A stretch of 64,000 nt of DNA. Source: Stegostoma tigrinum. Its lineage: Eukaryota. A program made the translations under genes and the position numbers. The notes under the pieces are model-generated. The model saw nothing but the letters and a program-made list of their open reading frames with translations, had not been told where the DNA came from and ran no database searches. Shown one piece after another: positions 31,777-44,663 of the stretch. Position 1 is the stretch's first letter; every line of letters starts with the position of its first letter. Location of the stretch: the NCBI RefSeq assembly GCF_030684315.1, contig NC_081360.1, positions 36,749,818-36,813,817 of the forward strand, in the 5' to 3' direction.

Positions 31777-31968
31777 ATGAAGGCTGTTATCCTGGCTGCT
31801 GGCTATGGTACCAGATTGAACCGTGACCTACAGAATGATAGCAGTGGTTGTTTCAAGCATCTCTGTGGCATTCCCAAACCCCTTCTACCAGTAGGAAATA
31901 AGGCACTTATCAGTCATTGGATGGCAGCATTGGACAAGATTGACAGCATTGATGAAGTTTATGTTATT
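31777..31968 (+). CDS. Nucleotidyltransferase coding exon 1
   Basis: ATG in aaaacATGA context, acceptor ctctagcag just upstream, donor ATT|gtatgt; GxGTRL...PKPL signature. Confidence 0.9.
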
Positions 31969-34900
31969 GTATGTTTACATCTTTTAATCTTTCTTTTTGA
32001 AAATGCACAGCTTTAATTGTGTTAAGTGCTTTCAGCTACAGTTATGAACTGGATTTGATTATCTAGGGCATAATTTCAAAGTTTGCAGATAACACAAAAC
32101 TTGAAAATGTGAAAATGAATCTAATAGATTTCAGTAAGACATACAGTACACTTGTGGAACTGAATTCAGAAGAATATAACATGTTTCAACTTATTAACAA
32201 AAATTAGAAAAGGTAATAGACTTTGGTGCTTCTGTTCTATAGTGGTATTGAAATACCGCACTAGAATTAGAGATTTTGATTGAACAACTTAAGATTTTAT
32301 TAATGATCTTTGACACGATTGAAATTGTAAATCCATGCGACATTCAAAATGATTTTGAATTTAAAGATGCATAGGATAGGTGAGGAAAAAGAAATTAACC
32401 AAATTTTCCTTGTGGTTTGTGTATACCAAATGCTAATATCAACACTGATTTATTTTGTGGTAAAGATAGACATTTTTTCTCATTCACCAGTGCATCAAAA
32501 CAGAAAGCAAATAAACAGGAAAATGTTGGTGTGGGAGGAACAGAATGAAACTTCAACTTGTGTGATTGTGGCCTATTTTATAGATTATAGAACATTACAG
32601 CACAGTACAGGCTCTTCGGCCCTCGATGCTGTGCCGACCTGTCAAACCGATCTCAAGCCCATCTAACCTACACTATTCCTTGTACGTCCATATGCTTGTC
32701 CAATGACGACTTAAATGTACCTAAAGTTGGCGAATCTACTACCATTGCAGGCAAAGCGTTCCATTCCCTTACTACTCTCTGAGTAAAGAAACTACCTCTG
32801 ACATTTCTCCTATATCTTTCACCCCTCAATTTAAAGCTATGCCCCCTCGTGCTCGCCGTCACCATCCTAAGAAAAAGGCTCTCCCCATCCACCCTATCTA
32901 ACCCTCTGATTATTTTATATGTTTCCATTAAGTCACCTCTCAACCTTCTTCTCTCTAATGAAAACAGCCTCAAGTCCCTCAGCCTTTCCTCGTAAGACCT
33001 TCCCTCCATACCAGGCAACATCCTAGTAAATCTCGTCTGCACCCTTTCCAAAGCTTCCACATCCATCTTATAATGCGGTGACCAGAACTGTACACAATAC
33101 TGCAAGTGCGGCTGCACCAGAGTTTTGTACAGCTTCACCATAACCTCTTGGTTCCGGAACTCGATCCCTCTCTTAATAAAAGCTAAAACACTGTATGCCT
33201 TCTTAACAGCCCTGTCAACCTGGGTGGCAACTTTCAAGGATCTGTGTACATGGACACCGAGATCTCTCTGCTCATCTACACTGCTAAGAATCTTACCATT
33301 AGACCTGTATTTTGCCTTCCGGTTACTCCTACCAAAGTGCATCACCTCAAACTTGTCTGCATTAAACTCCATTTGCCCCCTCTCAGCCCAGCTCTGCAGC
33401 TTATCTATGTTTCTCTGCAACCTACAGCATCCTTCATCACTATCCACAACTCCACCGACCTTAGTGTCGTCTGCAAATTTACTAACCCATCCTTCTACGC
33501 CCTCATCCAGGTCATTTATAAAAATGACCATCAGCAGTGGACCCAACACCGACCCTTGCGGTACACCACTAGTAACTGGTCTCCAGGATGAACATTTCCC
33601 ATCAACTACCACCCTCTGTCTTCTTTCAGCAAGCCAATTTCCGATCCAAACTGCTATATCTCCCACAATTCCATTCCTCCGCATTTTGTACAATAGCCTA
33701 TTGTGGGGAACCTTATTGAACGCCTTGCTGAAATCCATGTACACCACATCAACCGGTTTACACTCATCTACCTGTTTGGTCACCTTCTCAAAGAACTCAA
33801 TAAGGTTTGTGAGGCAGGACATTCCCTTCACAAAACCATGCTGACTATCCCTAATCAATTTATTCTTTCCTAGATGATTATAAATCCTATCCCTTATAAC
33901 CTTTTCCAACACTTTACCAACAACTGAGATAAGGCTCACTGGTCTATAATTACCAGGGTTGTCTCTACTCCCCTTCTTGGACAGGTGAACCACATTTGCT
34001 ATCCTCCAATCATCTGGCACTATTCCTGTAGACAATGACGAGTTAAAGATCAATGCCAAAGGCTCGGCACTCTCCTCCCTGGCTTCCCAGAGGATCCGAG
34101 GATAAATCCCATCCGGCCCAGGGGACTTATCTATCTTCACCCTCTGAAGGATTTCTAATACCTCTTCCTTGTGAACCTCAATCCCGCCTAGTCTAGTAGC
34201 CTGTACCTCAGTATTCTCCTCGACAACATTGTCGTTTTCTAGAGTGAATACTGCTGAAAAATATTCATTTAGCGCTTCCCCTATCTCATCTGACTTCACA
34301 CACAACTTACCACACTTTTGTCTTCTTTGCAAAAGAAAGTAAAATTTAAAACTGATCTTTAAAACACATAATGAGCAGACACTACAATGGTATCATTCTC
34401 TTGGTTATTGTTAGTAATTGCTAACTAATAATAATCTTTGCAGACAAATGATCTTTATTATGTGAAATTTGAAGAATGGGCAAAGGAGTTTCAACTAGTT
34501 AAAGTTCTAAATGATGGAACAAAAAACAATGAAGTAAGTGATAGAACTTCAATAGTCTCGATATATAATATATAAAGACGAACATTTTCAGTAATGTTAG
34601 ATCATTAGTAAGAATTACGTTTAACTTTCAGACAAAGTTAAATTTCAGCTGATTAAGATTTTTGTTTAATTGCATTGTAAAAGTTCAGTCCATTTGTTAG
34701 GAAATGTGAATACAGAATATAAGCAATGATTGAAGTAAGATTCTTTACTATAAAAGGTCTTGACTGCACTTCATTTTAGTTTCCAGACCTGGTCCGTACA
34801 AATATACAGGTAACACCTTGGTAGAACTTAACAAAATTGTAACAGTTTATAACTTGATTTGAAAATAACAAACTGAGATTGAATTGTAGATCATTGATTC

Positions 34901-43900: not shown

Positions 43901-44663
43901 GCCTGGTGTGATGTTGTCTACATACCAGAGATTCCTTATGCTGTTGCCTCCTATGATGCTGCTATATCTCTCTGGGATTGTTTTCATCATCCTCTGTCCC
44001 CCAGCATTAAACAACATGGTTGACAGAAGGCATCTCTGCCTGACTCTCACTCAAATTGGAATTGGCTTGTGTGTCTCTTGTCAACTATTTCCGAAGATTT
44101 TCCGTACAGATCTCTTACTGGCCATACAAGACAGATACTCCACAGTCTGTGTACATGCCTTCTATTAACATCATGCTGGACAATATTGAAAGCTTTTGAA
44201 CAATTGATGAATTAATTAAAACTGGGCCCCTTGTTTAATGAGATTTCCCCATGGGATTTCTGAACTTAAAACATACCATGCCACCTGCATAAATTCGAAT
44301 TTATTCAAAGATTCTGTGTATTATTTTCCTTTCACTCATTTTTCTTGGCAAACTGTGTTTATTTTGCCAGCTTATTTAACAATTACGTTAACAAAAGCAT
44401 TTTATTCTTGATAGAATTCAACATTGGAAGAGAAGGATGCACCTGGTAACTTCTTACGTTGGGTCTACTCAAGGTGAGAGATTGCTTCAAGGAACTGTTA
44501 TTTCATTTTTACTTCTGTGTTAGCTACTATGATTTTCTTTTCCTATTGCAGGAAACCAGTGTTTGTTCATCAAGTACGTGGCCGGTTTGATGTTGGAAAT
44601 CTTCCGGCTTATATTGACTGTACCACATATTTCCAGAAGCACAGAAAGGAATTATTGATTTAA
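31777..44663 (+). CDS. Sugar-1-phosphate nucleotidyltransferase-like protein (NTP_transferase / GT-A fold), 271 aa, 8 coding exons
   Basis: Exons 31777-31968, 34444-34533, 35345-35424, 38560-38675, 38763-38860, 39092-39160, 44415-44473, 44552-44663 (816 nt, all GT-AG, frame continuous). Motifs: [55 protein letters not shown]. Confidence 0.9.
32579..34315 (-). mobile_element. 5'-truncated CR1-clade LINE with uninterrupted RT frame, antisense in nucleotidyltransferase intron
   Basis: 554-aa [53 protein letters not shown]; 3' UTR ending in short tctataatcta repeat. Confidence 0.93.
34444..34533 (+). CDS. Nucleotidyltransferase coding exon 2
   Basis: tttgcag|ACAAAT...GAA|gtaagt; [30 protein letters not shown]. 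Confidence 0.85.
35345..35424 (+). CDS. Nucleotidyltransferase coding exon 3
   Basis: cccacag|GAACGG...GAGG|gtaagt; [27 protein letters not shown]. Confidence 0.85.
36140..37470 (-). mobile_element. Decayed CR1-clade LINE
   Basis: Frameshifted remnants ([35 protein letters not shown]) similar to the 32.6-34.3 kb element. Confidence 0.8.
38560..38675 (+). CDS. Nucleotidyltransferase coding exon 4
   Basis: tttcag|TGACAC...GAAG|gtcaat; DTLFYEDF...YFCKDE. Confidence 0.85.
38763..38860 (+). CDS. Nucleotidyltransferase coding exon 5 (alternative start 38760)
   Basis: CAGCAG tandem acceptor; [33 protein letters not shown]; donor GCT|gtaaga. Confidence 0.85.
39092..39160 (+). CDS. Nucleotidyltransferase coding exon 6
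   Basis: ttccag|TGCCCA...CAG|gtaagt; [23 protein letters not shown]. Confidence 0.85.
41335..43460 (+). mobile_element. Decayed Rex1/Babar-type LINE
   Basis: [64 protein letters not shown]...LSW across broken frames. Confidence 0.75.
43790..44180 (-). mobile_element. RTE-type LINE remnant
   Basis: [13 protein letters not shown]...[15 protein letters not shown] resembles RTE RT (GVRQGC..SP.LFN...NLRYADD). Confidence 0.5.
44415..44473 (+). CDS. Nucleotidyltransferase coding exon 7
   Basis: gatag|AATTCA...AAG|gtgaga; [20 protein letters not shown]. Confidence 0.85.
44552..44663 (+). CDS. Nucleotidyltransferase last coding exon
   Basis: ttgcag|GAAACC...[48 protein letters not shown] at 44955-44960. 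Confidence 0.85.

Follow-up and report, generated by a model that had tools for sequence, protein, structure and literature searches.

A gene on the plus strand of the Stegostoma tigrinum genome raises the question of which sugar phosphate and which nucleotide its product would join, and within which pathway. It occupies positions 31777 to 44663 of the 64,000-nucleotide stretch analyzed here (contig NC_081360.1, positions 36,749,818 to 36,813,817; hereafter, the window) and encodes a protein resembling sugar-phosphate nucleotidyltransferases. A previous reading of the letters alone (the sequence-only reading) had compared this protein with the N-terminal pyrophosphorylase domain of the bifunctional enzyme glucuronokinase-pyrophosphorylase (GKUP). 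It missed that the shark also has gkup itself, whose transferase domain lost catalytic residues kept in the stand-alone protein. In the role considered here, to which we give an even chance on the sequence evidence, the stand-alone protein would perform the second step of glucuronate salvage, converting glucuronate-1-phosphate and UTP into UDP-glucuronate.

Gene product, fold and catalytic residues

The eight coding exons, when joined, give 816 nt encoding 271 amino acids without internal stops, all seven introns follow the GT-AG rule, and the product matches the RefSeq protein XP_048390912.1 of Stegostoma tigrinum (P0002) with zero mismatches. The complete eight-exon gene proposed before was thus recovered with its exons where claimed. 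Bacterial contamination or a retrocopy is ruled out by the seven spliceosomal introns and by a tree that tracks vertebrate groups. The automatic RefSeq name, glucose-1-phosphate adenylyltransferase, was rejected (41.7 bits versus the TIGR02091 cut-off of 424.9, and no beta-helix). Fish relatives are named zgc:136439 or bear other, inconsistent automatic names; with 59% identity to a Labeo protein named zgc:136439, the shark gene is, by sequence comparison, the ortholog of this catalogued fish gene. Its description as uncharacterized stands, since no functional paper on zgc:136439 or on this paralog was found in the literature searched, supplementary tables lying outside that search.

Membership in the nucleotidyltransferase family PF00483 was confirmed for residues 2-260 with 86 bits (gathering cut-off 21.2). 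The AlphaFold model (predicted local distance difference test, pLDDT, 97.1; predicted template-modeling score, pTM, 0.93) consists of a single alpha/beta domain ending in one helix, without a beta-helix and without a kinase domain, which, together with the stop after residue 271, bears out the stand-alone architecture described before. The fold is of the GT-A type, with a match to 4ecm (Z 25.8, root-mean-square deviation (rmsd) 2.6 over 234 residues); RmlA, GalU, and GMPPB match at Z 24-26 and rmsd 2.4-2.9 with about 20% identity, and no close solved structure was among the matches. RmlA and GalU share with P0002 the single GT-A domain, a similar size (Z 24-26, rmsd 2.5-2.9), and the same catalytic set of Arg, Lys, Asp, Glu-Lys, and Asp, whereas P0002 differs by its low identity (about 20-27%), by 11 additional residues inserted behind the Arg loop, and by the greater length of its base-binding loop.

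None of the named families accommodates the protein. All 22 NCBIfam matches, including RmlA, GalU, and GlgC, lie far under their cut-offs, and the equivalog thresholds exclude an RmlA (TIGR01207, 39.7 versus 360.65 bits) and a GalU identity (TIGR01099, 28.8 versus 326.8 bits). GMPPA and GMPPB are longer (360-420 residues) and carry a left-handed beta-helix that is missing here, P0002 aligning to residues 1-242 of GMPPB only. Plant and trypanosome UDP-sugar pyrophosphorylases (USP) were rejected owing to their size of about 600 residues and distant structure (Leishmania USP, 585 residues; 3oh0, Z 16.5, 15% identity). A bifunctional GKUP is excluded by the stop after residue 271, no C-terminal GHMP glucuronokinase domain being present.

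Residues were counted in a set gathered by likeness to P0002, and therefore rich in fish: of 373 stored family domains, 278 near full length were kept and 95 partial ones dropped, and two GKUP-type rows were set aside, leaving 276. Arg13, Lys34, Asp122, and Lys181 are present in all 276 and Asp248 in 272; after thinning to less than 60% identity, Arg13 was retained in 107/107 and Asp248 in 104/107 domains. Together with Glu180, these residues align with the motifs of RmlA and GalU, where the Asp248 equivalent serves, in RmlA, as a metal ligand. According to the available text of PMC4643126, GalU, GlmU, and ADP-glucose pyrophosphorylase (AGPase) depend on the Arg of the GXG(T/S)R motif for catalysis; changes of this Arg or motif lower GalU activity about 500-fold and that of GlmU 6000-fold, and the modulatory AGPase subunit is without it. 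As judged from its sequence, the shark protein is a single-domain sugar-1-phosphate nucleotidyltransferase with intact catalytic residues, and it is probably active.

Along the gene, exon 1 (31777..31968, residues 1-64) encodes the nucleotide-binding loop with Gly9, Arg13, and Lys34, and exon 2 (34444..34533, residues 65-94) contributes Asn66, Trp76, and, with Asp88 and Asn93, the base-binding loop. Exon 3 (35345..35424, residues 95-121) carries the family-specific Arg96 and Gly98, and exon 4 (38560..38675, residues 121-160) the invariant Asp122, a putative Mg/ribose ligand. The sugar-phosphate motif Glu180-Lys181-Pro182 lies in exon 5 (38763..38860, residues 160-192) and Tyr197 in exon 6 (39092..39160, residues 193-215); exon 7 (44415..44473, residues 216-235) provides Asp223 and Gly226, and exon 8 (44552..44663, residues 235-271 plus stop) Arg246, Asp248, which aligns with the C-terminal Asp of RmlA and GalU, and Gly250. 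A candidate polyadenylation signal, called from its motif, follows at 44955..44960 on the same strand. At 38760-38763, exon 5 is preceded by a tandem CAGCAG acceptor, and two relatives (P0008 and P0012) contain one extra Ala there, the outcome expected if the upstream AG were used. An annotated isoform (P0001) skips exon 2 (34444-34533) in frame and is probably inactive, because the base-binding loop is lost with it. Furthermore, the family profile matches the flagellar protein FAP182 (PDB 6u42 chain 7H, E 1.2e-12), and a look-alike cluster at rank 8 in the ESM Atlas is labelled viral.

The second gene, gkup, and the history of the family

In zebrafish, GKUP was described as a specific glucuronokinase with a Km of 31 µM, for whose transferase no product was obtained under many conditions including eight nucleoside triphosphates, as far as the available text of PMC3938481 goes. 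Its authors proposed an unidentified partner protein, reported no other zebrafish homolog, and mentioned two eukaryotes with the domains on separate proteins (PMC3938481, available text). The latter may correspond to the stand-alone paralog.

In the shark, gkup was located on contig G000:C42 at about 6.303-6.348 Mb with a protist query, after a genome search with P0002 had returned its own locus only. A split or truncated gkup is therefore ruled out as the origin of the stand-alone gene. The N-terminal domain of shark gkup, modelled with eight AG/GT-bounded exons, is 31% identical to P0002 (E 5e-39), and both belong to one clade apart from RmlA and GalU, which supports the likeness to the GKUP domain suggested by the sequence-only reading. 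GKUP belongs to the same nucleotidyltransferase subfamily and has a similar taxon range, whereas P0002 has no kinase domain and is encoded by a separate gene on another contig. The two shark proteins differ at the residues of interest, Arg13, Arg96, Asp223, and Asp248 being kept only in P0002: in the gkup domain, Arg13 is replaced by Leu and Arg96 by Gln, and positions 223 and 248 lack the Asp. In the three other tree rows of the GKUP type (Rhynchopus P0154, L104, and L105), position 13 is Thr, Val, or Lys, and the Asp248 motif contains Gln, Arg, or His. Arg13 and Asp248 are accordingly missing in 4/4 GKUP-type tree rows, i.e., the shark and three non-vertebrate or unnamed sequences. In the literature searched, this lack of catalytic residues kept in the paralog was not found in print.

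Pairs of an active nucleotidyltransferase and a paralog of low or no activity have precedents in GMPPB/GMPPA (PMC11228364, available text) and in GalU/GalF and the small and large subunits of plant AGPase (PMC4643126, available text). As in GMPPB/GMPPA, the partner paralog lacks catalytic residues, the shark gkup domain being without Arg13 and Asp248. GMPP and AGPase, in contrast to P0002, carry a C-terminal beta-helix, and in the shark it is the decayed paralog that is fused to the kinase of the preceding step. The two shark proteins are not known to bind each other, mutual binding being a candidate feature of the pair. A complex prediction for P0002 and a GKUP-type N-terminal domain from a metagenome contig (P0375, a cross-species stand-in 56% identical to the shark gkup domain) scored 0.00 in two runs in which alignments were unused, which weighs neither for nor against such binding.

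A quick maximum-likelihood tree of 68 rows, with Shimodaira-Hasegawa-like approximate likelihood ratio test (SH-aLRT) support and no bootstrap, separated the family including P0002 and the GKUP domains from RmlA and GalU (support 99), in agreement with the relationship to gkup anticipated before. The first domain of P0208, meant as an outgroup row, was placed inside the family. Within it, a eukaryote-type clade of 46 rows (99) comprises the GKUP clade (99), the intact fusions, and the animal stand-alone proteins. All nine stand-alones of vertebrates fall together (96), and the GKUP clade is joined by several stand-alones as well as by six of the intact fusions (97). Since GKUP does not group with the animal stand-alones and the two shark genes have no intron position in common, the duplication is old.

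Stand-alone members were found in sharks, rays, a chimaera, ray-finned fishes, and all three amphibian orders, as well as in Capitella, Oikopleura, Sycon, a copepod, and an amoebozoan. The best 120 of 4,721 matches to a caecilian query comprised 27 amphibians, 9 cartilaginous fishes, 58 ray-finned fishes, and 26 unnamed sequences, and no amniote was among these 94 named matches. The loss in mammals suggested by the sequence-only reading is consistent with this result, but loss of the stand-alone gene is likely to be amniote-wide. Of the 26 unnamed matches, 25 have a named fish or frog counterpart at 79-99% identity, and the remaining one (P0310) is an unplaced jawed vertebrate, possibly an amniote or lobe-finned fish. 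Lungfish and coelacanth were likewise not named among the best 120 of 4,721 matches, indicating that the search can miss lineages. Glucuronokinase appeared in none of the papers listed in a literature search on amniote gene loss.

Candidate substrates and competing roles

In the proposed salvage route, free glucuronate, supplied by MIOX, which is present in the shark genome, or by glycan turnover, would be phosphorylated to glucuronate-1-phosphate by the kinase half of GKUP. The stand-alone, Mg-dependent enzyme would then bind UTP and Mg via Arg13, Lys34, Asp122, and Asp248 and glucuronate-1-phosphate via Glu180-Lys181, with Arg96 or Arg246 perhaps holding the glucuronate carboxylate, which is a guess, and would release UDP-glucuronate and pyrophosphate. 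The N-terminal transferase of GKUP would be a decayed paralog unable to carry flux, and the route from MIOX via the GKUP kinase to the stand-alone enzyme would be complete in fishes, amphibians, and many invertebrates. Enzymatic activity, sugar, nucleotide, and service to GKUP in vivo are all parts that we infer. A counterpart of this step is known from plants, where USP converts glucuronate-1-phosphate and UTP to UDP-glucuronate after glucuronokinase (PMC3938481, available text), the likeness to P0002 being one of role only.

Gene fusions are among the clues to glucuronate. Eleven stored fusions have a glucuronokinase-type kinase motif as in the shark gkup kinase, comprising nine with an intact transferase, all eukaryote or metagenome proteins, one of the GKUP type, and one unscored; two of the eleven bear the JGI name glucuronokinase. 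Two further intact fusions were detected among the metagenome glucuronokinase-type loci (the best 80 of 219, with flanks of up to 2.5 kb). In the bacterial family loci (the best 80 of at least 593, dominated by Omnitrophota through a bias of the query), a UDP-glucose dehydrogenase gene neighbours 3/80 members. Moreover, the absence of the stand-alone gene from amniotes matches the reported absence of GKUP from mammals. For UTP, it may be added that the two best PDB profile matches were named uridylyltransferases by their depositors.

A number of observations weigh against the glucuronate role. Full-length zebrafish GKUP yielded trace UDP-glucuronate after 70 h (PMC3938481, available text), so that the GKUP domain is not wholly dead, and one GKUP-type locus outside the tree (L106) keeps an Arg, in a loop one residue shorter. 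Neither the intact fusions nor GKUP is placed in the tree as direct sister to the clade of animal stand-alone proteins. Which residue selects the base, Asp88 or Asn93, is ambiguous, as detailed below. Eleven prokaryote-type fusions join the transferase to galactokinase-type kinases, P0128 is a fusion with UDP-glucose 4-epimerase (GalE), and in three starfish (P0122-P0124) an L-galactose-dehydrogenase-like aldo-keto reductase is fused to an intact transferase (E 6e-89). The GHMP kinases found within 5 kb in 7/80 bacterial loci are all galactokinase-like and none is of the glucuronokinase type, and 4/80 loci are operons of galK, transferase, and mutarotase. Finally, a transferase domain occurs in 19/80 glucuronokinase-type loci (6 fused, 11 with a GalU-like neighbour, 2 with an RmlA-like gene on the other strand), and the separate partner is GalU-like in 11/80 and of this family in 1/80 (L166), where both are present. 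Prokaryote-looking kinases stand beside GalU-like genes in L107, L150, L153, L161, L164-L166, L174-L176, and L179.

These galactose links would be expected of a UDP-sugar pyrophosphorylase with broad specificity, a small counterpart of plant USP, or of an enzyme acting chiefly on galactose-1-phosphate or another neutral sugar, which would serve several sugar-1-kinases with glucuronate as a minor substrate or none. The galactokinase-type and epimerase fusions, the four galactokinase-transferase-aldose epimerase operons, all of Acidobacteriota, and a GalE-like neighbour of one bacterial member agree with it, as does the promiscuity of RmlA-type enzymes (PMC9415975, available text). However, the galactokinase links are confined to prokaryote branches of the tree and do not enter the eukaryote-type clade, in which all kinase fusions are of the glucuronokinase type, and the match of the loss pattern with that of GKUP would be left unexplained. 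Animals, furthermore, already possess GALT and UGP2. We consider such a broad or galactose-directed enzyme a serious but rather unlikely alternative. The acidobacterial operons (L087, L092, L094, and L099), which combine a sugar ABC transporter, a galactokinase-like kinase, the family transferase, and an aldose 1-epimerase, possibly represent a GalT-free salvage route.

A purine nucleotide, most likely GTP with formation of a GDP-sugar, for instance of an L-sugar or a uronic acid, appears improbable. By strand register, the equivalent of RmlA Gln83 may be Asp88 (87/107 sequences below 60% identity), and the exchange Q83D/S shifts the purine/pyrimidine bias of RmlA (PMC9415975, available text); by distance to the invariant Gly98, however, it is Asn93 (99/107), an amide like Gln. 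In the fold search, GMPPB scores on a par with RmlA and GalU (Z 24.4 versus 24.2-25.8), and starfish carry the L-galactose-dehydrogenase-like fusion; both would fit a GDP-sugar. On the other side, the loop at the base-binding position is extended and contains an acidic residue in the best profile match 8x7s, too, which is a named uridylyltransferase, and UDP is favoured by the neighbouring genes for GalE and UDP-glucose dehydrogenase. A role apart from GKUP was judged about equally improbable: the protein could be a housekeeping paralog of old standing whose phosphate substrate is unknown or not a sugar, or which works in the direction of pyrophosphorolysis, with the weak GKUP domain sufficing or needing modification. 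The ancient duplication, with no common intron position, and the trace activity of zebrafish GKUP are compatible with this, and most sampled bacterial loci lie among ptsI, metK, and ahcY without a sugar kinase. That bacterial sample is skewed by its query, though, and the sugar-binding Glu-Lys-Pro motif and the repeated fusions of intact domains to sugar-1-kinases argue for a sugar phosphate.

Building on the glucuronate salvage role, a wider scheme, which we regard as doubtful, can be formulated for animals. Two genes would be required, proteins of the P0002 type being the true UDP-glucuronate pyrophosphorylase and the GKUP N-terminal domain a pseudoenzyme maintained from protists to sharks, which would dock the enzyme onto the kinase or sense UDP-glucuronate as GMPPA senses GDP-mannose. 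Both genes would have been lost jointly in amniotes, and the pair would allow human cells to produce UDP-glucuronate without UDP-glucose dehydrogenase (UGDH).

Locus, expression and biological meaning

The gene is flanked downstream by an ASNSD1-like gene in tail-to-tail orientation (exons within 46748..51369, minus strand), identified by weak Pfam matches to GATase_7 and Asn_synthase (E about 1e-3), as expected from the earlier naming of this neighbour. A search of the genome with PF00733 gave no match, though Pfam on the open reading frames (ORFs) of the window gave the Asn_synthase matches. Upstream, a head-to-head gene on the minus strand, with a probable first coding exon at 22145..22714, has ankyrin-repeat exons just beyond the window start (2/3 ORFs tested). 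From these exons and its N-terminus we take it to be ANKAR; human ASNSD1 and ANKAR are presumably direct neighbours. Orthologs from a carp (P0024) and a frog (P0314) are recorded under OSGEPL1-type names, suggesting that the gene adjoins OSGEPL1 there and that the locus is conserved.

A CpG island at 26900..28000 (observed/expected ratio 0.61-0.80 versus a window median of 0.25) probably holds a promoter shared with the upstream gene and a non-coding first exon, for which a candidate lies near 27,300-27,430 with a candidate donor at 27431. A second island (58400-59300) is probably the promoter of the ASNSD1-like gene. Intron 1 is mostly filled by a long interspersed nuclear element (LINE), presumably CR1-like, with a 574-aa open reverse-transcriptase frame (32668-34392, minus strand), and introns 3 and 6 contain decayed LINE pieces. 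Two long ORFs of 431 and 502 aa at 13020-15550 (minus strand), without a Pfam match at E 0.01, are presumably part of a Penelope-type retroelement, of which many shorter copies occur across the window. Furthermore, a stretch of about 45 bases was seen by eye to be present twice with few differences (about 30318 and 35915).

The evidence for expression is indirect, none of the listed runs that hold the gene being recorded as RNA. Two contigs from 2/4 runs (two studies of a related organism, their RNA status being guessed) match 31751-31968, the match ending exactly at the first donor, and run on into other sequence past 31968; one related-species contig (X4 record 32) showed an apparent read-through of intron 7. 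An exon-exon joint was not seen among the 15/387 matches listed for four guessed-RNA runs over 13.3 kb, repeats swamping the result. Public run assemblies contain full-length orthologs on contigs some 1 kb long, a length that indicates spliced transcripts where the gene has several exons.

That the gene is catalogued, that its fold is ordinary, and that the pathway was proposed in 2014 (PMC3938481) was already known. The 2014 work left a puzzle, namely a good kinase next to a near-silent pyrophosphorylase, with no other known use of glucuronate-1-phosphate. A more recent paper continues to cite GKUP for the two steps, and brings up supplementing UGDH patients with glucuronate while noting human homologs as unproven (PMC6992768, available text). 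The stand-alone gene is a named candidate for the open pyrophosphorylase step; recognizing it sets right the misleading names given automatically in many annotations of fishes and amphibians, and provides a further probable example of a metabolic gene lost when amniotes arose. UDP-glucuronate is a building block of cartilage, into which the gene would recycle free glucuronic acid. If the proposed role is true, a second animal route to UDP-glucuronate would be complete and might account for the glycosaminoglycans that remain in zebrafish ugdh (jekyll) mutants; models of UGDH disease in fish and frogs would need qualifying, and the two genes needed for a bypass in UGDH-deficient patients would have been named.

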